From a virus (taxonomy: Duplodnaviria > Heunggongvirae > Uroviricota > Caudoviricetes), in IMG/VR virus record IMGVR_UViG_2778261031_000001, positions 1-9,116 of that record: a stretch of 9,116 nt of DNA; one strand, given 5' to 3'. The translations under genes and the position numbers were made by a program. Shown piece by piece: positions 1 through 9,116 of this stretch. The stretch's first letter is position 1. The number at the start of each line of letters is the position of its first letter. The notes beneath the pieces are model-generated. The model did no database searches, was not told where the DNA came from, and saw only the letters and a list, made by a program, of their open reading frames with translations.

Positions 1-110
1 TGCTTCCATCGGAAACGATGATCTGGCAGCCTGAGTTCACAGATAAAACACTCTCCAGGAAACCCGGGGCGGTTCAACTGTGTTGGCTTGCTGTAACTTG
101 CTTGTGTCAT
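1..110 (-). CDS. possible 5' end of a leftward early gene, partial (continues beyond window start)
   Basis: ATG at 110..108 (- strand) opens a frame with no stop through position 1 (MTQASYSKPTQLNRPGFPGECFICELRL...). It lies downstream of cro/nutR where cII or replication genes sit in lambdoid order. RBS is weak and the N-terminus does not resemble lambda CII. Confidence 0.25.
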   Translation of the reverse strand, partial: MTQASYSKPTQLNRPGFPGECFICELRLPDHRFRWK

Positions 111-148
111 TTCTTAATATTTCCAATAGTGAATAGTTAGTTGAAAGG

Positions 149-166
149 TATGCGTGGAAACGCATA
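149..166 (-). promoter_or_regulatory. perfect 7-bp stem / 4-nt loop hairpin between nutR and the next leftward gene (possible tR1-region element)
   Basis: TATGCGT-ggaa-ACGCATA inverted repeat on the + strand; no adjacent T-run, so not a classic intrinsic terminator. Confidence 0.3.
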
Positions 167-213
167 TGGCCTTGGTTGGTCAGATATTCTGGGATTCGCT
201 TTTCAGCGACGTA

Positions 214-241
214 GGACGAATGTCCGTTGTTACAAAGAGCG
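214..241 (-). promoter_or_regulatory. candidate nutR (boxA + boxB) directly after the cro stop
   Basis: - strand reads CGCTCTTTG (boxA-like, 241..233), TAACAAC, then GGACATTCGTCC hairpin (225..214), then TACGT. The same boxA-AACAAC-hairpin-TACGT layout recurs upstream of N at 2946..2973. Confidence 0.45.
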
Positions 242-248
242 GGGTTAC

Positions 249-476
249 TTATGCTGCCAAAAGGTTCTTTTTGCTTATTTCAAGCATTTCGCTTGCTTGA
301 TATTTGCCACCAGAAATCTCTTCGATTTTTGATGCATATTTCGTTTTCCCAAAAAACTCAGTCTTAGGGAGGAAGCCGTTTTTGAGCCACTTATAGACAG
401 CCCTTTCGCTAACTCCACAAGCCTTCGCAACTTCAGGGATGCCGACACCTTTAATCGGCTCATCAAGATTTTGCAT
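249..476 (-). CDS. cro: Cro-like HTH repressor (75 aa if started at 476; the ORF track start at 509 gives 86 aa)
   Basis: Small HTH protein (GIPEVAKACGVSERAVYKWL) divergent from the CI gene. ATG at 476 has SD AAGGA 7 nt upstream and leaves a 78-bp operator region; start at 509 would place the operator palindrome inside the coding sequence. Confidence 0.7.
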   Translation of the reverse strand: MQNLDEPIKGVGIPEVAKACGVSERAVYKWLKNGFLPKTEFFGKTKYASKIEEISGGKYQASEMLEISKKNLLAA

Positions 477-507
477 GTGGATATCCTTTTTCGTACTTTC
501 AGTACGC

Positions 508-535
508 ATTATGATTGAACTGAAAGTTTTTGCAA
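508..535 (-). promoter_or_regulatory. candidate pR (drives cro)
   Basis: - strand -35 TTGCAA (530..535), 16-bp spacer, -10 CATAAT (513..508). The 517..529 operator lies in the spacer and the 493..505 operator covers the predicted start site. Confidence 0.45.
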
Positions 536-541
536 GTGCTT

Positions 542-547
542 TAGTAT
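542..547 (+). promoter_or_regulatory. candidate pRM -10 element giving a leaderless cI transcript
   Basis: TAGTAT sits 7 nt upstream of the cI ATG (555), and no Shine-Dalgarno precedes that ATG, consistent with the leaderless cI mRNA known for lambda pRM. No good -35 (nearest TTGAAC is 21 bp upstream). Confidence 0.3.
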
Positions 548-554
548 CGTACTC

Positions 555-1262
555 ATGGTTCAGAATGAAAAAGTGCGCAAAGAATTCGCCCAGCGGCTAG
601 CGCAAGCCTGTAAAGAAGCTGGTCTTGATGAACATGGTAGGGGAATGGCCATAGCCCGCGCCCTTTCTCTTTCGTCCAAAGGCGTTAGCAAATGGTTTAA
701 CGCTGAGTCTTTACCACGTCAGGAAAAAATGAATGCGCTTGCGAAATTTCTAAACGTTGATGTTGTGTGGCTTCAGCACGGCACTTCGTTAAATGGAGCG
801 AATGATGAAGATACTCTTTCATTTGTTGGCAAATTAAAAAAAGGGTTAGTGCGCGTGGTTGGTGAGGCAATTCTTGGTGTTGATGGTGCCATCGAGATGA
901 CCGAAGAGCGCGATGGGTGGCTCAAGATTTATAGCGATGATCCAGATGCCTTTGGTCTTCGTGTGAAAGGAGACAGCATGTGGCCCAGAATAAAATCAGG
1001 AGAATATGTACTCATTGAGCCTAACACCAAAGTATTCCCGGGTGATGAGGTGTTTGTCAGAACCGTTGAAGGACACAACATGATCAAAGTTCTTGGCTAT
1101 GACAGAGACGGAGAATACCAGTTTACAAGCATCAACCAGGACCATAGGCCAATAACGTTGCCTTATCATCAAGTAGCAAAGGTGGAGTATGTAGCTGGTA
1201 TTCTGAAGCAATCTCGCCATCTGGATGACATCGAGGCAAGGGAGTGGCTGAAAAGTTCGTGA
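555..1262 (+). CDS. cI: CI-type prophage repressor: N-terminal HTH plus C-terminal LexA/S24 autopeptidase domain
   Basis: 235 aa. N-terminal HTH (GMAIARALSLSSKGVSKWFNAESLP); C-terminal GDSMWP serine motif with downstream lysine (HNMIKVLGY) typical of the S24 Ser-Lys dyad; divergent from cro with operators between. Confidence 0.9.
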   Translation: MVQNEKVRKEFAQRLAQACKEAGLDEHGRGMAIARALSLSSKGVSKWFNAESLPRQEKMNALAKFLNVDVVWLQHGTSLNGANDEDTLSFVGKLKKGLVRVVGEAILGVDGAIEMTEERDGWLKIYSDDPDAFGLRVKGDSMWPRIKSGEYVLIEPNTKVFPGDEVFVRTVEGHNMIKVLGYDRDGEYQFTSINQDHRPITLPYHQVAKVEYVAGILKQSRHLDDIEAREWLKSS

Positions 1263-1359
1263 CTTCATCGTCACATAGCTGATAGCCAGTGGCCTGAAGA
1301 GACGTTTGGGTGACAAGAAGCACAGGTATTAACAATAACTTTCATGGTGATACGAATCA

Positions 1360-1902
1360 GTGGCTAAAAAAGGCGACTTTAAGCCTACCCAGAAAGAGGT
1401 TGAACAAGCTATTACTCGCTTGAAAAAAGTAACTTTTAGCGGAGTTACATGGACCGGAAGTGAGGGACGAACCCCAATCTGGTTTAAATTGGATCTCAAA
1501 GCTTTTGATGAAATTGGCAACCCAATCACAGGCATAAGATTTATGCTTCACTGGCGTCCTCCTATCGTTGAAGGGGTGGATATAGTGAAGATTTCATTTG
1601 TGATGTTTCTTCATGACAGGCGCATTTACGCGCTTGACCCGTACCCTGCGGATAACAAGCCACACCGTAATAAATCTATAGTGAACCATCCAGATTTTGT
1701 TGAGGTGGCTCGAGGTCCTCACTATCACATGTACTTCGAATCAGCTGGGGAAGAAATTGCACTTAAGCTTGAAACGAACATCAAGCCAGATGATTTTTTT
1801 GGCTACTGGAATTATTTTTGCGAGGCGCTTAATATCATATATGAAGGCAGCCCACCTTTACCTAATCAAGATAAATCAGGTCAGCTATCATGGGAAATGT
1901 AA
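1360..1902 (+). CDS. uncharacterized protein A (180 aa), first gene of the cassette at the rexAB-equivalent position
   Basis: ORF begins with GTG at 1360 (GGTGA 9 nt upstream); same strand as cI. No transmembrane segment, no recognisable catalytic motif apart from a His-rich patch GPHYHMYFES. Appears lower in GC than the cI and Ea22-like genes. Confidence 0.7.
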   Translation: MAKKGDFKPTQKEVEQAITRLKKVTFSGVTWTGSEGRTPIWFKLDLKAFDEIGNPITGIRFMLHWRPPIVEGVDIVKISFVMFLHDRRIYALDPYPADNKPHRNKSIVNHPDFVEVARGPHYHMYFESAGEEIALKLETNIKPDDFFGYWNYFCEALNIIYEGSPPLPNQDKSGQLSWEM

Positions 1903-2666
1903 CGTGTTCAACAGTCATATCTAAGCTCGGGTTTGAATGCCACCCAATGAGCGACACGTTGCTGCGCGTTATTAGTCCCTTCACATACTACGATGATTGT
2001 GAGCAGATAAGTGTATTCGTTCAAGAGATGAGTGGTCAGTATAGGGTTACAGACTACTGCGATACATTGATGAATATTGAATCACGCGGCATCCACCTGA
2101 CTAAAAAGAAAATTGATCTGATCAGGTCATCACTCGCTTCGCAAGGAATTTCATTAAATGACTCTGGAGAGATATCTGCGTGGGCAGATGAGTCGTCCGT
2201 TGGACAGGTAACTGCAAATGTTATTCGTGGTGGGATTCTTGCATCCGCCCAAACTGCTGATTGGTATGCTGAGGTCAAAGACGATAAGTTCGAAAAATGT
2301 GTAATCAGTTACTTAAAATCAGCAGGGCTTGGGAAGCGACTAGCCTTAAAGGAAAAAGTGAAAGGTATTAGTGGGCATAACATTACTGTTCCGTTAACGC
2401 TAAGGAATGAGTCTCGACTAATACCACCAAAACGCGGGTTTACGGTAAGCCTTGCCAGCAGTAAGGGATGGAATACTGCCCACTCAACAGTTGGGAAGAT
2501 TGTTGACTTAAGTCAGGTCGTTCCTGACATAAACAATAGATTTGTAATAGTTGACAGCGATGGGTTAACACCTGAGCTACAGCAACTATCACTACTATTT
2601 AATGATACCGCACGAGTGTTGCCATTCCATACCAGAGACTCTTGGATTGAGTCTCTGGTAGCCTAG
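1890..2666 (+). CDS. uncharacterized protein B (258 aa; 239 aa if started at ATG 1947), second gene of the cassette
   Basis: ATG 1890 overlaps the stop of protein A (ATGGGAAATGTAA), suggesting translational coupling. Soluble, no family recognised. Followed directly by an intrinsic terminator. Confidence 0.7.
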   Translation: MGNVTCSTVISKLGFECHPMSDTLLRVISPFTYYDDCEQISVFVQEMSGQYRVTDYCDTLMNIESRGIHLTKKKIDLIRSSLASQGISLNDSGEISAWADESSVGQVTANVIRGGILASAQTADWYAEVKDDKFEKCVISYLKSAGLGKRLALKEKVKGISGHNITVPLTLRNESRLIPPKRGFTVSLASSKGWNTAHSTVGKIVDLSQVVPDINNRFVIVDSDGLTPELQQLSLLFNDTARVLPFHTRDSWIESLVA

Positions 2667-2670
2667 AAAA

Positions 2671-2698
2671 ACCCGGCCTCAGCGCCGGGTTTTCTTTG
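2671..2698 (+). terminator. rho-independent terminator ending the cI / accessory cassette unit
   Basis: ACCCGGC-ctcagc-GCCGGGT 7-bp GC-rich stem followed by TTTCTTTG; begins 5 nt after the protein B stop. Position matches lambda tImm. Confidence 0.75.
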
Positions 2699-2856
2699 CC
2701 TCACAGACTTAACAACCGCACATGTGGTAAACCGCAAACCAACACGCCAGCAAAATCATTCTTTCTCCACAACTGACCAGTCTTCAACCTTTACAAAAAT
2801 AAATTTCCTTATATATCAAAATCATATTTCGTAGAGTTAATAAATCACAAAATTTC

Positions 2857-2893
2857 GTACCAATAGTTCTTGATAATGTCGAACTATTAGTTC
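2857..2893. promoter_or_regulatory. oL operators: two 13-bp sites of the same family as oR
   Basis: GTACCAATAGTTC (2857..2869, 1 mismatch) and GAACTATTAGTTC (2881..2893, perfect palindrome); centres 24 bp apart. Confidence 0.55.
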
Positions 2894-2898
2894 ATTAT
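2870..2898 (+). promoter_or_regulatory. candidate pL
   Basis: -35 TTGATA (2870..2875), 17-bp spacer containing the perfect operator palindrome, -10 CATTAT (2893..2898); correctly placed upstream of nutL and N. Confidence 0.5.
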
Positions 2899-2945
2899 TA
2901 TCGCCATCAGCAGGAAGCTGGAAGCCAAACGGAACAGACTGGCAG

Positions 2946-2973
2946 GCTCTTTAAACAACGTCGAACACTCGAC
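2946..2973 (+). promoter_or_regulatory. candidate nutL (boxA + boxB)
   Basis: GCTCTTTAAACAA (close to the rrn/lambdoid boxA consensus) followed by GTCGA-acac-TCGAC hairpin and TACGT, about 120 nt upstream of N. Confidence 0.5.
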
Positions 2974-3089
2974 TACGTGGCTGAAAAGCCAGATCACCCA
3001 ACCACATAAGCTGTGGGATGCAATGCCGAAGCAACCGTCTCAGGAGGGGCTTCGAGATTGCATCGCCAAAGTTTATTCGGGAGGAATCT

Positions 3090-3362
3090 ATGTCCAGAAA
3101 AACAGAATTTAAAGGAACCGCAGCTTCTCGCCGTAGAGCTCGTCGTGCAAATCTGCAAAGTCAGGAGGCGATCAGCTCCGACAAGCTACACAGGCCAACC
3201 CCTTCACGAGTGGTCTTGCAATGCAAGCGCAAACCAGCAATGAGAGCAGAAGTGATAACTCTGACAACGTTGACCAGAAAATATGAAGGTTCAACTTGTC
3301 TTCCGAACGTAGCCATTTACGCGGCAGGCTATCGGAAATCAAAACAACTGACGGCGAGATGA
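3090..3362 (+). CDS. N: N-type transcription antiterminator, P22 gp24-like (90 aa)
   Basis: Arg-rich N-terminal motif (TAASRRRARRANLQ); C-terminus LPNVAIYAAGYRKSKQLTAR closely resembles the P22 gp24 C-terminus as I recall it. Strong RBS GGGAGG 5 nt before ATG 3090. The track's 3018 start is an unsupported upstream extension. Confidence 0.85.
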   Translation: MSRKTEFKGTAASRRRARRANLQSQEAISSDKLHRPTPSRVVLQCKRKPAMRAEVITLTTLTRKYEGSTCLPNVAIYAAGYRKSKQLTAR

Positions 3363-3426
3363 CTTGTGTTGGTCGCCAGAAGCAACGCGGAAAATCAATT
3401 CCAGCTTATTACGATTGAGGTGAGCC

Positions 3427-3564
3427 ATGCTCAAGAAAGTCAAACGCCGACTTTACAAAGAAGGTAGATATTCATGCCAGTTGCCAAAATGCGACACAAC
3501 AAAATGGAGTGTCGATGATTGGTGTAACTGGATAGATAGATACGGAACTTGGTGGGATAAATAA
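3427..3564 (+). CDS. small Cys/Trp-rich protein (45 aa), below the ORF-track length cutoff
   Basis: ATG 3427 preceded by TTGAGGTGAG (3415..3424). Translation MLKKVKRRLYKEGRYSCQLPKCDTTKWSVDDWCNWIDRYGTWWDK; the same 10-mer precedes the next gene. Confidence 0.4.
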   Translation: MLKKVKRRLYKEGRYSCQLPKCDTTKWSVDDWCNWIDRYGTWWDK

Positions 3565-3618
3565 CAGGTAACTTAAGCGTATTTACTTTCGCAGCAAACC
3601 AATTATTTGAGGTGAGAT

Positions 3619-4089
3619 ATGACAAAATCATGGAGCGTACCTTTTCCTGAATCAGAAACTGAACATGAGGGAATGCCTGTTTTCTGGAGATTCCAGGAGA
3701 CAGTTGAAGAAGATGGAATCAAAATATTCGCACTTCAATATATAGCTTTTCATCAGACAGAGCATTATGCATGGTTGGTTCCTGCGCATTGGATTGTTAA
3801 TTTTAAACCAACACCAAATCAGTGGTTACAGGAATGGAAACAAAAGAGAAATAGATATGCAATTAAGAAAGTAGCAAAAAATGCAGAAAGATCTTTTGCA
3901 TTCCCAACGAAGAAACTTGCCATTGAAAGTTTATTGCGCCGGAAGAAATACCATTTAATGATAATCAAACAAGATTTGGCTGTTGTATCAACTCTTGTTG
4001 ATGGGATGAAGAATATTGATACATCAACACCAGATATTGAATATAACTTTGGACACAACCAAGAAACAGAAAACTGGGTGTTTTATTAG
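3619..4089 (+). CDS. uncharacterized AT-rich accessory protein (156 aa)
   Basis: ATG 3619 preceded by TTGAGGTGAG (3607..3616). Markedly AT-rich compared with neighbours. Sits between N and cIII, the lambda ral/sieB/ea10 neighbourhood. Confidence 0.75.
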   Translation: MTKSWSVPFPESETEHEGMPVFWRFQETVEEDGIKIFALQYIAFHQTEHYAWLVPAHWIVNFKPTPNQWLQEWKQKRNRYAIKKVAKNAERSFAFPTKKLAIESLLRRKKYHLMIIKQDLAVVSTLVDGMKNIDTSTPDIEYNFGHNQETENWVFY

Positions 4090-4103
4090 TACGAATAAGC
4101 ACT

Positions 4104-4131
4104 GTGTATTCATTCCAACGAGTGAATACAC
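4104..4131 (+). promoter_or_regulatory. perfect 9-bp stem / 10-nt loop inverted repeat after the AT-rich gene
   Basis: GTGTATTCA-ttccaacgag-TGAATACAC; no T-run follows, so an RNA structure or protein-binding site rather than an intrinsic terminator. Confidence 0.3.
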
Positions 4132-4193
4132 GGAGCAATGTCGCTCGTAACTAAACAGGAGCCGACTTGTTCTGATTATTGGAAATCTTCTTT

Positions 4194-4217
4194 GCCCTCC
4201 AGTGTGAGGGCCTTTTT
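4194..4217 (+). terminator. rho-independent terminator inside the pL operon (tL-like)
   Basis: GCCCTC-cagtgtg-GAGGGC stem-loop followed by CTTTTT. Confidence 0.6.
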
Positions 4218-4279
4218 ATATGCATACCAATAACGCTTCACTAGAGGCGTTTTCGTTATGTATAAATAAGGAGCACACC

Positions 4280-4420
4280 ATGCAATATGCCATTGCAGGG
4301 TGGCCTGTTGCTGGCTGCCCTTCCGAATCTTTACTTGAACGAATCACCCGTAAATTACGTGACGGATGGAAACGCCTTATCGACATACTTAATCAGCCAG
4401 GAGTTCCCAAAAATGGATAA
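4280..4420 (+). CDS. cIII: CIII (protease inhibitor protecting CII), 46 aa
   Basis: MQYAIAGWPVAGCPSESLLERITRKLRDGWKRLIDILNQPGVPKNG matches lambda CIII as I recall it, minus the last ~8 residues. Strong RBS AAGGAG 6 nt before ATG 4280; the track's 4220 start is an unsupported extension. Confidence 0.85.
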   Translation: MQYAIAGWPVAGCPSESLLERITRKLRDGWKRLIDILNQPGVPKNG

Positions 4421-4526
4421 AACACTTATGGCTATCCAGACTAAATTCACTATCGCCACTTTTATTGGCGATGAAAAGATGTTTCGTGAGGCCATCGAAG
4501 CCTACAGAAAATGGAGGTCAAAATGA
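4413..4526 (+). CDS. kil: Kil-like host cell-division inhibitor (37 aa)
   Basis: MDKTLMAIQTKFTIATFIGDEKMFREAIEAYRKWRSK resembles lambda Kil from memory; immediately downstream of cIII as in lambda; SD AGGAG 9 nt upstream. Start overlaps the cIII 3' end by 8 nt. Confidence 0.75.
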   Translation: MDKTLMAIQTKFTIATFIGDEKMFREAIEAYRKWRSK

Positions 4527-4711
4527 TTCCGGTAGAACTGGCGAAAACTCCAGAATTAAGTCGATTAAAAAGAGAATATCACATTGCTGAGGCTCGTTAC
4601 TGGCGTAAAGCGGGAGATAAATCAAAGAAACAACTTTGTTTATGGCAGGCTCAAAGAGAGCGCATGAATGAGCGCGAGTTTCTTTCCTCCCCATCCGAAC
4701 TACCATTCTGA
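4523..4711 (+). CDS. hypothetical protein (62 aa)
   Basis: ATG 4523 overlaps the kil stop (ATGA) with GGAGG 5 nt upstream. Basic, helical-looking; no family recognised. Confidence 0.6.
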   Translation: MIPVELAKTPELSRLKREYHIAEARYWRKAGDKSKKQLCLWQAQRERMNEREFLSSPSELPF

Positions 4712-4719
4712 GGCAAATT

Positions 4720-5400
4720 ATGGGAACTGCGACATTAATACTCGGTGAGTCTGGCACCGGAAAATCAACCAGCATGAGAAATATCAATCCCGAGGAAGCA
4801 ATACTTATAAAACCAATAGGCAAGCCGCTACCATTTAAATCAAAAGAATGGCTGGCATGGGATGCCAGAGCAAAAAAAGGAACCGTAGTTACCACTGACA
4901 AATGGGACGTAATAGTTGCCGTAATTAAGCGTGCTCACGAATACGGGAAAAGAATCGTTATTGTTGATGACTTCCAGTATGTGATGAGCAATGAGTTTAT
5001 GCGCCGCTCAGAAGAAAAATCGTTTGATAAATTTACTGAGATAGGCCGCCACGCATGGGAGGTGATTAAGGCTGCACAGGATGCACCTGATGACCTGAGA
5101 GTCTATTTTCTTGCACACACCGAAGAAACCCCTATGGGGCGCGTGAAAATGAAAACTATCGGCAAAATGCTGGACGAGAAAATCACTGTCGAAGGCATGT
5201 TTACTATAGTTCTTCGCACCCTTACCCGTGATGACCAGTTCTTTTTCACCACAAAAAACAACGGTGCAGACACTGTTAAATCCCCAATGGGAATGTTTGA
5301 CTCCAATGAGATTGATAACGATCTCTCTTTCGTCGATGCCACTGTTTGTGATTACTACGGCATCAATAATGTTCATCAAATTAAGGAAAACGCCGCATGA
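4720..5400 (+). CDS. P-loop NTPase, possibly Sak4-like (RecA/Rad51-core) recombination ATPase, 226 aa
   Basis: Walker A GESGTGKST near the N-terminus and Walker B RIVIVDDF. Size and position (where lambda has gam-bet-exo) are consistent with a Sak4/AAA_24-type protein; the family call is from memory. Confidence 0.8.
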   Translation: MGTATLILGESGTGKSTSMRNINPEEAILIKPIGKPLPFKSKEWLAWDARAKKGTVVTTDKWDVIVAVIKRAHEYGKRIVIVDDFQYVMSNEFMRRSEEKSFDKFTEIGRHAWEVIKAAQDAPDDLRVYFLAHTEETPMGRVKMKTIGKMLDEKITVEGMFTIVLRTLTRDDQFFFTTKNNGADTVKSPMGMFDSNEIDNDLSFVDATVCDYYGINNVHQIKENAA

Positions 5401-5984
5401 GCAACGTAATTTTTACTTATAACGAAGAAGCAGCACTGACCGCAGGGCAAGGTGGTTTTATTAACGAAACTGGCGCTCATATCATTACCATTACTGAAGC
5501 AGAACTAAAGCAATCAGAAAAAGGAGCCAAATTTATTGAGTTTTCTGGCGAATCCGACGACGGACGTAAAATCCAATATCTTAGCGTCTGTGTTCAGAAA
5601 AATGACGGAACGGAAAATAAATTTGGCGCAAATGTCGTCCACGCCATGATGGGGTGTGCCGGGATTGGACAATTAACGCAACATATGGTTTCCGCCAGTA
5701 AATTTGTTGCTCCTGAATTTCATGGAAAGAAAATCGGGTTAGTGCTCCAGAAAGTATTAACCACAAACAAAAAGACTGGCGCAGACAGCTACCAGATGGA
5801 AATACGCATCCCGTTTATTGCACAAACAGGTCAAACCCTTAAAGAAAAGGCGGAAGGCAAGCAACCAGAAACTATCGCCAACATGGTTGCCAGCCTCAAA
5901 GATAAAGACAATCGCTCTAAAAACGTAAGCCAGAATCATGCAGATGATTATGGTTACAGCCAGAACGATTACCCTCCTTTCTGA
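5397..5984 (+). CDS. hypothetical protein (195 aa), possible ssDNA-binding partner of the ATPase
   Basis: ATGA overlap with the ATPase gene. C-terminal tail ...DDYGYSQNDYPPF is reminiscent of the acidic ...DDDIPF SSB tail; Sak4-type genes are typically adjacent to an SSB-like gene. Function is inference only. Confidence 0.75.
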   Translation: MSNVIFTYNEEAALTAGQGGFINETGAHIITITEAELKQSEKGAKFIEFSGESDDGRKIQYLSVCVQKNDGTENKFGANVVHAMMGCAGIGQLTQHMVSASKFVAPEFHGKKIGLVLQKVLTTNKKTGADSYQMEIRIPFIAQTGQTLKEKAEGKQPETIANMVASLKDKDNRSKNVSQNHADDYGYSQNDYPPF

Positions 5985-6007
5985 TTACTGAAAATAAGGC
6001 TCCCATT

Positions 6008-6301
6008 ATGCCAGCGCCTCAGTATGGTGCGGATGACCCGCGCCGCTGTTCCGGCAATTCCGTGTCGGAGGTGCTGGATAAATTCAGAAAAAACTACGAT
6101 CGGATAATGTCGCTACCGCAGGAAACGAAAAAGGAAAAGGAATTTCGCCACTGTATATGGCTTGCAGAGAAAGAAGAACGCGAGCGAATTTACCAGACAT
6201 CAATCCGACCATTCCGCAAAGCCACATATACCCACTTCCCTGAAATTGACCCGCGCCTGCGTAATTACCGCTCACGCTATGGCGCTATCAGTAATGACTG
6301 A
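6008..6301 (+). CDS. hypothetical protein (97 aa)
   Basis: ATG 6008 with TAAGG 8 nt upstream; co-oriented in the early-left operon. Confidence 0.65.
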
Positions 6302-6311
6302 GGAATTTACC

Positions 6312-6476
6312 ATGAGAGGACTTGCATACAATCCCGGCATTCTTCCGGCAGAAATGATTATTCGCCAACGCGTAAAGCCAATGCCATCGAGAGAGGAACT
6401 GCTTAAGAGAAATTCTTTTCCATCAGTAAATCAAAACAAATATCTGAATGTGGTGTGGCGGAGTGGGAAGAAATGA
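6312..6476 (+). CDS. hypothetical small protein (54 aa)
   Basis: ATG 6312 with GAGGA 7 nt upstream; its stop overlaps the next start (ATGA at 6473). The track's longer 6162 start overlaps the previous gene. Confidence 0.5.
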
Positions 6477-7069
6477 AACAAATGTCACTAATTGAGATGG
6501 ATGGATTTCTGAAAGGTAAATGCATCCCACGAGATTTAAAAGTTAACGAAACAAACGCTGAATATCTGGTGCGTAAGTTCGGTGAACTTGAATCAAAACT
6601 AGAAACGGCGTTGCGGGAGTGTCGTTCTGCTGGAATAACGATTGACAACCTTGAGGCTAAGTGTGCGGCGCTGGATGCTGATAACAAGAAAGCAATGGAG
6701 GCAATGAGGCAGGCAGATGCAGCCGTTAAGTTGGCACACGAGAAGTTTTCTGCGCTGGCGGCGGAGAATGCGAGACTGAAATCTGCGCCCCCTCAACCAT
6801 TCGGACCTGAGATGATGAAGGCTCTTGATGCGTATGAGAAGTATCAGGATGAAGTGCCGGAGACTGGGATGCTCAATGCATTTTTCATCTTGCGCGACAG
6901 TATCCGTGTTGACACCCCAGCCACCGACGCATTCCTGGCTGAAGTACGGGCGCAGGGCGTGGAGATGGCTATGGAGCATATGCAGTCGAGCGGCTCGTTA
7001 ACATTTGGAGATTGCTACATATCACTTAACGAGTTCGTCGCAGAGCTTCGCAAAGGAGGCAACCAGTGA
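6473..7069 (+). CDS. hypothetical coiled-coil protein (198 aa)
   Basis: ATGA coupling at 6473; Ala/Glu/Lys-rich central region ([44 protein letters not shown]) suggests coiled coil. The track's GTG 6455 start lies in the upstream gene. Confidence 0.7.
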
Positions 7070-7290
7070 GCGGAAAAAGAATGACTAACAGAGAGCTTGT
7101 CGATGCCGCGATTAAGCTTGCTGGTGACTTTTATTCAATGATGGGGTACGCGCATCGCCCTGGATTCAAATATTGGGAGTCGCCTCACCCGCAAGAGCAA
7201 CTGGTATTTCAAATGGCCTGCCGTGCTTTTGAGGTTATTCGCGGTTCTGATGTGATGGACGCCGTTGCCGACTTGGAGGATGAAGAGTGA
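7066..7290 (+). CDS. hypothetical protein (74 aa)
   Basis: GTG 7066 overlapping the previous stop (GTGA), preceded by AAGGAGG with 6-nt spacing. Confidence 0.7.
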   Translation: MSGKRMTNRELVDAAIKLAGDFYSMMGYAHRPGFKYWESPHPQEQLVFQMACRAFEVIRGSDVMDAVADLEDEE

Positions 7291-7781
7291 CCCAAATTAA
7301 CTATCAGGCGCTGCGTGAAGCGGCGGAGAAGGCCACGGCGCTCAATCTTGATACCGCTCAAGTGAAGCGCGGGAATGATGGATATCTTGAATGCCCATGC
7401 TGTGAGGGCGCTGGCTACGTGGAAGAGGAAAGCGACTTCTGCAATATCGACGGCGTGGCGCTCGGCGTTCAGTTCTACGGCATTGGCGAGCATTACGGAT
7501 TGGCTGAGTCATATCTCAGAGCAGCCAACCCCGCAACCGTTCTGGCGCTGCTGGATGAGCTGGATAAGTGGCAACAGGAATCATCAGCGTGGCAGGCGGT
7601 TGCGGAGAAGCAACTGGCTTTGGCGGCAGATGCAGAGAAGCGCATCGCTGAACTGGAAGAGAGGAAGGTTGTGCCGGATGAAATGACGCCAAAGCAAGCG
7701 TCGCGCTCATATTGCGGAGAAGTTAGAGGGTATCGTGATGGATGGAACGCCTGCCGTGCTGCCATGCTTCAGGGTGCCTAA
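7287..7781 (+). CDS. Ead/Ea22-like family protein (164 aa)
   Basis: GTG 7287 in GTGA overlap with GGAGGA upstream. Features recalled from Ead/Ea22-like prophage proteins: N-terminal ...QALREAAEKA..., CPCCEG Cys cluster, ...LLDELDKWQQE... segment. Confidence 0.75.
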   Translation: MTQINYQALREAAEKATALNLDTAQVKRGNDGYLECPCCEGAGYVEEESDFCNIDGVALGVQFYGIGEHYGLAESYLRAANPATVLALLDELDKWQQESSAWQAVAEKQLALAADAEKRIAELEERKVVPDEMTPKQASRSYCGEVRGYRDGWNACRAAMLQGA

Positions 7782-7853
7782 CCTGTAAGCCAAACTTACA
7801 AGTTGCCTCCCCTGTCATCCAACGAAGTAAACGACGCGGCATGGAAATTACAC

Positions 7854-8153
7854 AACATGCTGACTGAACACGGCCCGCTAAATGGGCGTCAGTTCAACAA
7901 TCTGAAAGGTTGCTTCTATGAGGCATTAAAGGTCGCAATGCGCAACTCTCCGGTAACTCCGGATGGTTGGATAAGCTGTAGTGAGCGAATGCCCGCTCAA
8001 GATGATTGGATTTTAATTTATTCAAAGCACGGCGAGTATATGGCAGGACAGGGACAAGGGGAATACGTGGAGTTGAGCGACGGCACTTTATCGTGGTTAG
8101 GGAACGCCTTGTACTGGATGCCGCTACCAGAACCGCCGCAGGAGGCGAAATGA
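7854..8153 (+). CDS. DUF551-like prophage protein (99 aa from ATG 7854; track ORF begins at TTG 7803)
   Basis: C-terminal ...WMPLPEPP... matches the DUF551 signature as I remember it. Start is uncertain: neither TTG 7803 nor ATG 7854 has a clear SD. Confidence 0.7.
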   Translation, partial: NMLTEHGPLNGRQFNNLKGCFYEALKVAMRNSPVTPDGWISCSERMPAQDDWILIYSKHGEYMAGQGQGEYVELSDGTLSWLGNALYWMPLPEPPQEAK

Positions 8154-8431
8154 TGGACTCCTTCGCGAAATATACGATTATTGACTGGATAGCCTTCCTT
8201 CAGGTTTTGCTCATCTGGTTTTATATGGCTTACAGGAGTGGACAGTGGATTGTCAGTGTAGCCTGTAGCAAGGGATGGCGTTGGTGGAACCGAAAGAATA
8301 AAAAAGCACTGGCCTTGGATTCGTTTTACGAAGCATTCAATCTTAACAGCCTTCAGCCTGGTTCTGTCATTGTAGTCACCACTCAAAGTGGCATGACCAT
8401 TCAGATTCATAAACCAAAAGAGGAAAAATGA
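8150..8431 (+). CDS. small predicted membrane protein (93 aa, one TM helix)
   Basis: ATG 8150 with GGAGG 5 nt upstream, overlapping the previous stop. Hydrophobic stretch YTIIDWIAFLQVLLIWFYMAY near the N-terminus. The track's 8006 start is an in-frame extension inside the upstream gene. Confidence 0.65.
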   Translation: MMDSFAKYTIIDWIAFLQVLLIWFYMAYRSGQWIVSVACSKGWRWWNRKNKKALALDSFYEAFNLNSLQPGSVIVVTTQSGMTIQIHKPKEEK

Positions 8432-8517
8432 TGTGGCTTATATGTGTTAATTGCGGACGGATGTGCCTATCTGGATGGTGCCGAAAGTGCGACAAATGCA
8501 CGAAGCAAAGACAATAA
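8428..8517 (+). CDS. possible Cys-rich micro-protein (29 aa)
   Basis: ATGA overlap with the upstream stop, GAGGAAAA just upstream. Translation MMWLICVNCGRMCLSGWCRKCDKCTKQRQ has 7 Cys in 29 residues; a terminator follows. Confidence 0.35.
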   Translation: MMWLICVNCGRMCLSGWCRKCDKCTKQRQ

Positions 8518-8551
8518 CAATCCTCGCACTCGCGGGGATTTCTTTTATCTG

Positions 8552-8576
8552 AACTCGCTACTGCGAGTTTTGTTTT
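8552..8576 (+). terminator. rho-independent terminator
   Basis: AACTCGC-tact-GCGAGTT stem-loop followed by TTGTTTT. Confidence 0.55.
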
Positions 8577-8588
8577 ATGGAGATGATT

Positions 8589-8888
8589 ATGGCCTGTTCA
8601 ACATTCAACCCTTTAACGTTACAGAAATACCAGCCAGACCCTGAAGATTTATGCTCACTGTGTGGCGGAGATCATGGTAAAGCCGCCATGATCGAATGTA
8701 AGGACAAAATCCACATATGCCTTGATTGCGTTGATGTCCTCGTTGATATCAAAAATGAAAGAGAAGATAAAAAGCGTAGCGAGGCTATTCGCGCCTTAGA
8801 TTCATGGATGCGAGATGGGTATAGTGCTGCGCAAATTTATGACTTAGCCATTTCAAAAGGCGAAATACCAGGTGTGCGAATCGAATAA
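8589..8888 (+). CDS. hypothetical protein with paired CxxC motifs (99 aa from ATG 8589)
   Basis: Three in-frame ATGs (8577, 8583, 8589); GGAG lies 6 nt before 8589. Contains CSLCGG ... CLDC, a zinc-ribbon-like spacing. Confidence 0.7.
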   Translation: MACSTFNPLTLQKYQPDPEDLCSLCGGDHGKAAMIECKDKIHICLDCVDVLVDIKNEREDKKRSEAIRALDSWMRDGYSAAQIYDLAISKGEIPGVRIE

Positions 8889-8923
8889 GAAGCGCACTCA
8901 AGCATCTTTTGGGGAAATCACAA

Positions 8924-9091
8924 ATGCACTTCCGAGTCACAGGTGAATGGAATGGAGAGCCATTCAACAGAGTTATCGAATCGGAGAACATCAACGACTG
9001 CTATGACCACTGGATGCTGTGGGCGCAGATAGCACATGCAGACATAACCGATATTCGAATTGAAGAACTGAAAGAACACCAAGCCGCCTGA
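8924..9091 (+). CDS. hypothetical small protein (55 aa from ATG 8924; track ORF starts at TTG 8909)
   Basis: GGGGAA 7 nt upstream of ATG 8924; followed immediately by a terminator. Confidence 0.55.
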   Translation: MHFRVTGEWNGEPFNRVIESENINDCYDHWMLWAQIAHADITDIRIEELKEHQAA

Positions 9092-9103
9092 TGGCGGTTT
9101 TTT
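9084..9103 (+). terminator. rho-independent terminator overlapping the stop of the last gene
   Basis: CCGCC-tgat-GGCGG stem-loop followed by TTTTTT. Confidence 0.6.
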
Positions 9104-9116
9104 CTTGCGTGTAATT

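Follow-up and report, generated by a model that had tools for sequence, protein, structure and literature searches.

We examined the interval between the N and cIII genes in a 9,116-nucleotide (nt) stretch of DNA from a virus of the Caudoviricetes (IMG/VR record IMGVR_UViG_2778261031_000001, positions 1 to 9,116; hereafter the window). The whole window spans the part of a lambdoid prophage that holds the immunity and early-left genes and is given here in the direction of the pL promoter. An earlier note, made from the sequence alone, had described positions 3363–4220 as an AT-rich accessory block with two open reading frames (ORFs), ORF45 and ORF156, that share a translation signal and might represent defense or counter-defense cargo. 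The layout of the interval proves ordinary, consisting of two phage genes and the tL2a terminator of lambda, all long catalogued. The reading that we consider probable is that of a normal stretch of the pL operon, which carries two independent gene cassettes, ends at the boundary sequence bsq4 and tL2a, and encodes early soluble proteins, of which ORF156, the counterpart of HK97 gp45, would serve in host takeover or counter-defense. The features of the interval are as follows.

3415–3424, + strand: first copy of TTGAGGTGAG, the Shine-Dalgarno site of ORF45
3427–3564, + strand: ORF45, 45 amino acids, isoelectric point 9.4, basic, Trp-rich, soluble; DUF5484, PHROG 1871
3591–3618, + strand: cassette linker GCAGCAAACCAATTATTTGAGGTGAGAT, which contains the second copy of TTGAGGTGAG; a mosaic joint
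3619–4089, + strand: ORF156, 156 amino acids, 18.7 kDa, soluble; HK97 gp45 family, PHROG 1636
4099–4211, + strand: bsq4 lambdoid boundary sequence, with a 12-bp hairpin (4104–4131) and a second hairpin (4132–4173)
4192–4220, + strand: predicted tL2a intrinsic terminator, stem at 4194–4211 followed by a T run

Cassettes, linkers, and the bsq4/tL2a boundary

Both ORFs are present as first described, and ORF156 is indeed richer in AT than its surroundings: its GC content is 35.7% (29.3% at third codon positions) against a window mean of 45.0%, which places it in the lowest 1% of 471-nt segments. The block as a whole (38.5% GC) falls in the lowest 1.5% and contains the GC minimum of the window. 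Homologs of gp45 in Pectobacterium and Brenneria lie 6 points below their surroundings in GC, a deviation less extreme than the one seen here.

The two genes do not form a single unit, as had been supposed. Among 5426 complete E. coli genomes, DNA of ORF45 occurs in 145 and the ORF156 block in 2240, while the whole interval is collinear in only 47. In related prophages an extra gene stands between ORF45 and gp45, namely Nmad5 in E. coli A21005 (locus L003), Ral in E. coli GF66.2 (L004), and DUF7446 in a third locus (L005), and each of these inserted genes is preceded by TTATTT[G/A]AGG. Given these counts and insertions, ORF45 and ORF156 each make up an independent cassette of one gene, and the cassettes meet at short linkers that hold the ribosome-binding site. 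Megablast homology to HK97 and the Shiga toxin (Stx) phages starts at 3591, at GCAGCAAACCA[A/C]TTATTTGAGGTGAGAT, so the linker marks a mosaic joint; the gp45 genes of HK97, 933W, and phi24B share with ORF156 the upstream linker TTATTTGAGGTGAGAT. When aligned with the ral–bsq4 junction of lambda, the gp45 cassette is found to follow GCACTG exactly; its final bases, GAATAAGCACTG, repeat imperfectly, in direct orientation, the upstream GAATAAACACTGCACTG at its left edge. Cassettes of this kind would be swapped at short conserved linkers (TTATT..TGAGG), with the repeated TTGAGGTGAG as their ribosome-binding part, and such an exchange would explain the joint at 3591. This mosaic of cassettes and linkers is textbook lambdoid architecture.

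The identical 10-mer ahead of both start codons, which had been put forward as a special shared signal, is real: TTGAGGTGAG occurs twice in the window, at 3415–3424 and 3607–3616, in each case 2 nt before the ATG. Exact identity, equal spacing, and a similarity that reaches further upstream with a gap (TTATT..TGAGGTGAG) are what one would expect of a specific cis-regulatory element to which a protein or RNA binds to coregulate translation of both ORFs. Seven of the ten bases (GAGGTGA), however, are simply the complement of the anti-Shine-Dalgarno sequence; both sites pair with the 3′ end of 16S ribosomal RNA at −11.5 kcal/mol, and three other genes of the window have sites in the same range. 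When one mismatch is allowed, at least two matches to the 10-mer appear in 22 of 200 shuffles. The sister prophages L003 and L004 carry TTGAGGTAGT in place of TTGAGGTGAG ahead of an identical ORF45 protein, so the identity of the 10-mer is not conserved, and the two ORFs are mostly found apart. A dedicated regulatory element is thus highly improbable, and the repeat is better described as a strong Shine-Dalgarno site within cassette linkers.

The hairpin noted downstream of ORF156 is likewise present, with a perfect 9-bp stem (4104–4112 and 4123–4131) that as RNA comprises 12 bp and a 4-nt loop, and a sequence scan recovers the intrinsic terminator (GCCCTC-CAGTGT-GAGGGC and a T run, 4194–4217). 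The predicted tL2a has a 6-bp stem with five GC pairs and a 6-nt loop, followed by CTTTTTAT. The Sf6 annotation labels the sequence equivalent to window positions 4099–4217 "bsq4; boundary sequence" and "terminator; homology to phage lambda; tL2A", and in a five-phage alignment approximately 113 nt are identical in lambda (where they form the ral–ea10 spacer), Sf6, HK97, 933W, and the window. Among the four named phages the flanking genes alone differ, and identity ends a few bases past the T run. Because of this identity, which includes lambda itself, the hairpin and terminator belong to the conserved lambdoid backbone and not to the accessory block. Luk and Szybalski reportedly described the tL2 cluster that lambda carries between ral and bet, and Clark et al. 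as well as Casjens et al. are said to have described boundary sequences.

The bsq4/tL2a RNA is predicted to fold into three hairpins (−43.6 kcal/mol, z = −5.1 versus shuffles). Strict identity over about 113 nt despite unrelated flanking genes exceeds the requirements of a mere terminator; possible causes are frequent recombination at the boundary sequence and a function as RNA that is yet to be described, for example in processing or as a 3′-end-derived RNA. A relationship to the KilS-like small RNA of Rac was ruled out by a lack of homology. A 31-amino-acid ORF (4138–4233) runs through bsq4 and matches no family, and the antisense and overlapping ORFs of the block likewise gave no significant family match (the frame at 4016–4150 was borderline, E = 0.008). 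A second terminator-like hairpin (4232–4251; AACGCTTCACTAGAGGCGTT, then TTCGTTAT) separates tL2a from the ribosome-binding site and thermoregulator of cIII. It is also found in HK97, whereas lambda, Sf6, and 933W have other genes inserted there.

The HK97 gp45 and T4 55.4 families

Neither protein had been recognized at first, but homology searches place both in catalogued families, ORF45 with Sf6 gp36, T4 55.4, and DUF5484, and ORF156 with HK97 gp45 and PHROG 1636. The match of ORF156 to PHROG 1636 (E = 5.3e-109) spans residues 1–156 of 156, and tblastn shows 96–97% identity over all 156 residues to the copies in HK97, 933W, H-19B, and phi24B. ORF156 thus corresponds to HK97 gp45, 933W ST933Wp19 (p19), and phi24B vb_24B_11c, and all sources label it either a hypothetical protein or a prophage protein. 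Sequence from the interval, for the most part the block from ORF156 to the terminator, is found in 325 phage records in addition to the 2240 E. coli genomes, in up to six places per genome. Since the protein itself occurs in 87 phage records by tblastn, some of the 325 represent a match to bsq4/tL2a alone.

Close homologs of ORF156 are confined to the Enterobacterales, and full-length homologs with 58–96% identity come from Escherichia, Pectobacterium, Brenneria, and Rosenbergiella. An exhaustive profile search extended the family to 78 representatives at E ≤ 0.001, of which about 60 are distant relatives of 126–169 amino acids that fall into PHROGs 13631 and 25384 and into no Pfam family; the relationship also holds when searched in the reverse direction. 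Two long matches from this search (P0050 and P0096) were set aside as repeat or compositional false positives, and direct comparison ruled out Sf6 gp34, which occupies the same slot, as a distant relative. Pfam, NCBIfam, and PADLOC searches with ORF156 and 71 family members assigned no family, and literature searches on either protein or gene family returned nothing relevant.

The genomic position of ORF156 is that of an early-left gene, co-directional with N and upstream of tL2a. The gp45 genes of HK97 and 933W also lie directly upstream of bsq4/tL2a in the pL operon but follow N immediately, whereas here the ORF45 cassette intervenes. Among more distant settings, Pantoea phage LIET2 carries a sequence relative among small co-directional genes, adjoining a DNA methyltransferase gene, with no repressor or integrase seen in the listed stretch. 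In Vibrio phage PvVp04, a distant relative directly follows a cro-like helix-turn-helix (HTH) gene and precedes pRha and a replication initiator. In E. coli A21005 gp45 is immediately preceded by an Nmad5 gene (L003, 1759–2382), and another is found about 1 kb, or two genes, downstream of the distant relative in PvVp04 (L017, 6448–7080); this proximity may be coincidence or a weak functional link. The metagenomic contexts of gp45 relatives consist of short stretches with no informative neighbors.

An AlphaFold model of ORF156 built on a 71-sequence alignment is confident, with a predicted local distance difference test score (pLDDT) of 93.9 and a predicted template-modeling score of 0.81, as compared with a pLDDT of 51 when the 18 close homologs alone are used. 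The model features three long antiparallel strands (residues 19–55), short helices, a short strand (83–86), and a long helix (98–130). It matches no solved structure. A library of predicted viral structures yields uncharacterized proteins only, from temperate and lytic phages of Erwinia, Achromobacter, Delftia, Rhizobium, Tenacibaculum, and Cellulophaga; several of these phages, among them Erwinia phiEa2809 and Achromobacter phiAxp-3, are lytic. ORF156 thus belongs, as HK97 gp45, to a phage-wide family of proteins of about 130–160 amino acids, with a predicted fold of a β-sheet and a long basic helix that has no solved relative. The N terminus of ORF156 is acidic, the conserved center basic (+12 across residues 63–115), and the C terminus acidic. 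Maximum hydropathy over 19 residues is 1.0 for ORF156 and −0.7 for ORF45, as expected of soluble proteins with no membrane segment. Comparison of gp45 with DNA- and RNA-binding families and folds gave no match. An apparent AP2-like resemblance of its hairpin–helix segment was dropped after profile comparison with AP2/ERF (AtERF1), which, like that with the N-domain of lambda Int, returned a probability below 1%.

ORF45 scores 46.7 bits with Pfam PF17583 (DUF5484), for which the gathering score is 27 (E = 2.6e-12, model positions 3–41 of 43), and matches PHROG 1871 with E = 1.4e-22. The product of gene 36 in Shigella phage Sf6 is 100% identical; its gene occupies the same place, immediately after the N-like gene, and was annotated by its depositors as "similar to phage T4 gene Orf55.4". 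Relatives with 40–54% identity occur in 1037 phage records (tblastn), the majority of them T4-like and others from Klebsiella, Enterobacter, and Erwinia phages. In T4-like phages the relative is gene 55.4, within the 55.1–55.9 early cluster that adjoins the nrd genes. We aligned ORF45 with the RB32 55.4 protein (50% identical), two proteins from Klebsiella and Enterobacter phages, and that of phiEt88. Thirteen positions are invariant across these five sequences (K6, R7, K11, G13, Y15, P20, T24, W27, W32, I36, D37, G40, and W42).

The small protein is Cys- and Trp-rich as described, with three Cys and five Trp. Its Trp residues are conserved in the family, but none of the three Cys is invariant in the alignment and all three are replaced in the T4-like copies. 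ORF45 has no His, and with no Cys invariant across the five sequences it lacks a conserved set of four zinc-binding Cys/His residues; the lack of conservation indicates that it carries no metal-binding Cys motif. Judged from sequence, ORF45 is a genuine gene, because it is conserved from T-even to lambdoid phages and has a strong Shine-Dalgarno site (−11.5 kcal/mol). The NCBI Prokaryotic Genome Annotation Pipeline calls no 45-amino-acid DUF5484 gene in the four RefSeq genomes inspected (L002–L005), and most of the RefSeq rows sampled for collinearity list no separate gene there; this looks like a recurrent annotation gap for a small gene. The idea that ORF45 might be YdaG of Rac was discarded, as the two do not align.

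Expression and likely roles of the two proteins

A consensus scan of positions 2600–4700 finds a single promoter-like site on the + strand upstream of the two ORFs, the pL-like site at 2870–2898, and a sequence scan places the first intrinsic terminators at 4194 and 4232, downstream of both genes. Since the only promoter-like site precedes the two genes and the first intrinsic terminators follow them, ORF45 and ORF156 would be transcribed from pL together with N, ahead of the first intrinsic terminator. Translated from their strong Shine-Dalgarno sites, they would be early lytic-cycle proteins and not lysogen-expressed ones. Each product would bind some macromolecule of the host and act in the cytoplasm. 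In gp45, the conserved basic hairpin–helix segment (K83–K87, R91, and R107-R108-K109) would most likely contact nucleic acid or an acidic host protein.

What such proteins might do is suggested by the slot itself. As the earlier note stated, the N–cIII interval of lambda carries ral and sieB, and the same slot elsewhere contains Ral, antisense SieB, Nmad5, DUF7446, the P22 gp17 family, Ea10, and Sf6 gp34; in E. coli GF66.2 (L004) Ral separates ORF45 from gp45, and in Sf6 it separates gene 36 from gene 34. The proposal of a second site for defense or counter-defense therefore stands insofar as the interval is a variable cargo site, and a counter-defense role is plausible; an exclusion role of the SieB type is unlikely for either protein. 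Because the slot elsewhere holds Ral, Nmad5, the P22 gp17 family, and antisense SieB, gp45 would most plausibly be a host-takeover or counter-defense factor in line with Ral, Nmad5, and gp17. The occurrence of its fold relatives, all uncharacterized, in phages of many hosts, together with the sequence relative in LIET2, points toward a role in lytic growth and not in lysogeny. For both proteins, Pfam and PHROG matches are to families other than Ral and SieB, and no conserved non-defense function could be assigned to either.

If the block were defense cargo, one or both proteins would be made in the lysogen and would exclude superinfecting phages, as SieB and RexAB do. The location fits this idea, as sieB sits at this site in lambda, P22, HK140, and Salmonella phage 29485, and so do the AT-rich, moron-like composition and the abundance of gp45 in E. 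coli prophages (2240 of the 5426 genomes). SieB is a membrane protein, and in the phages examined it is encoded on the strand opposite pL. ORF45 and ORF156, by contrast, are co-directional with pL, both are soluble with no membrane segment, and no promoter-like site is found on the + strand within 2900–4200. PADLOC models give no consistent match: ORF45 has none, ORF156 has only a spurious hit to Cas1_II (E ~0.01), and nothing is common to the 71 family members. Relatives of gp45 occur in Pantoea phage LIET2, where the listed stretch contains no repressor or integrase, and those of ORF45 in T4-like lytic phages. On account of the inferred pL expression, the solubility, the PADLOC result, and these relatives, we consider exclusion cargo improbable.

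The main rival reading makes gp45 an accessory protein that binds DNA or RNA and serves phage replication, recombination, or the control of genes, as a regulator or nucleic-acid chaperone of the early program, with no part in countering immunity. Its conserved central segment is strongly basic (+12, residues 63–115), and the gene is invariably part of an early operon, with genes of recombination or replication as neighbors: Sak4, Erf, or Bet is encoded downstream here and in HK97 and 933W, the cro-like HTH gene, pRha, and replication initiator adjoin it in PvVp04, and xis-int does so in Pectobacterium and Brenneria. A family spread among phages of many hosts would also suit such a role. No DNA- or RNA-binding family or fold is matched, however, the AP2/ERF and lambda Int N-domain comparisons stay below 1% probability, and gp45 is dispensable insofar as lambda, Sf6, and HK140 do not have it at this site. 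We regard a purely nucleic-acid-related function as rather unlikely, although far from negligible, and continue to favor host takeover or counter-defense.

Several observations weigh against this preference. The slot also holds Ea10/Ssb and TolA-like genes, which makes neighborhood weak evidence of function, and the gp45 relatives of Pectobacterium and Brenneria, while co-directional with early-left genes, are located beside xis-int. Nucleic-acid binding by gp45 is suggested by charge alone, the AP2-like resemblance being unsupported, and the case for translation of ORF45 consists of its conservation in distant phages and the strength of its Shine-Dalgarno site. "Immediate-early" timing is uncertain, as N and ORF45 may be separated by a Rho-dependent tL1. 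A screen of 200 accessory genes (Silas et al. 2023, bioRxiv 10.1101/2023.04.06.535777) showed that orf184, from the ral accessory region, triggers gop-beta-cII; neither ORF45 nor gp45 is among the 200 genes listed. That gp45 might itself be orf184 was ruled out, as orf184 is a different protein of 107 amino acids.

Neighboring genes and the significance of gp45

The following features were identified around the N–cIII interval.

555–1262: cI
1360–1902 and 1890–2666, + strand: two ORFs (180 and 258 amino acids, 13-nt overlap) in the rexAB position, between cI and pL
2870–2898, + strand: putative pL-like promoter, TTGATA-17-CATTAT, from the consensus scan
3018–3362, + strand: N antiterminator gene, start more likely at 3090; Pfam PF25694, E = 5.8e-32, residues 23–114
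4267–4325: cIII thermoregulator, Rfam RF01804, 88.5 bits, the sole Rfam match
4280–4420: cIII, its start in agreement with the thermoregulator match; kil follows
4720–5400: gene for a Sak4-like annealing protein

The pair of ORFs in the rexAB position matches the PADLOC candidate system PDC-M24 (A, E = 4e-4; B, E = 5e-7), as well as Pfam DUF6978 (below threshold) and DUF1828 and PHROGs 2017 and 1960. It is probably a lysogen-expressed candidate defense pair and a better candidate for defense cargo than the N–cIII block. For N, the Pfam N_peptide match begins at residue 23 of the frame as listed from 3018, and a start at the ATG at 3090 is probable: GGGAGG lies 5 nt upstream, and Shine-Dalgarno pairing is −10.9 kcal/mol, versus −3.3 at 3018. 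A 79-amino-acid ORF (4287–4526) in a frame other than that of cIII matches a PHROG named "Kil" because some records, such as that of 933W, annotate an 89-amino-acid kil overlapping with cIII. An ORF of 37 codons that starts at the ATG at 4413 is probably the real kil.

Annotations of both genes of the N–cIII interval and of its terminator in HK97, 933W, and Sf6 date back more than 20 years, and these sequence features are not new. No function for gp45 was found in the databases and literature searched, and what makes it of interest is the combination of a very common early protein of Stx-phage-type prophages, a confident model without a solved relative, and relatives in the phages of many hosts. 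We advance more tentatively, as a possibility well short of an even chance, a bolder proposal in which gp45 is the founder of an uncharacterized family, spread across phages and folded unlike anything in the PDB, and inhibits, early on, some factor that serves the host in immunity or housekeeping, with ORF45 as a second small effector shared by T-even and lambdoid phages. If this were true, gp45 would be among the most widespread undiscovered counter-defense or host-takeover proteins of enteric temperate phages. Of the complete E. coli genomes, 41% carry it, as do the major Shiga toxin phages (933W, H-19B, and phi24B), and it could represent a common early function that affects the induction and spread of these phages.

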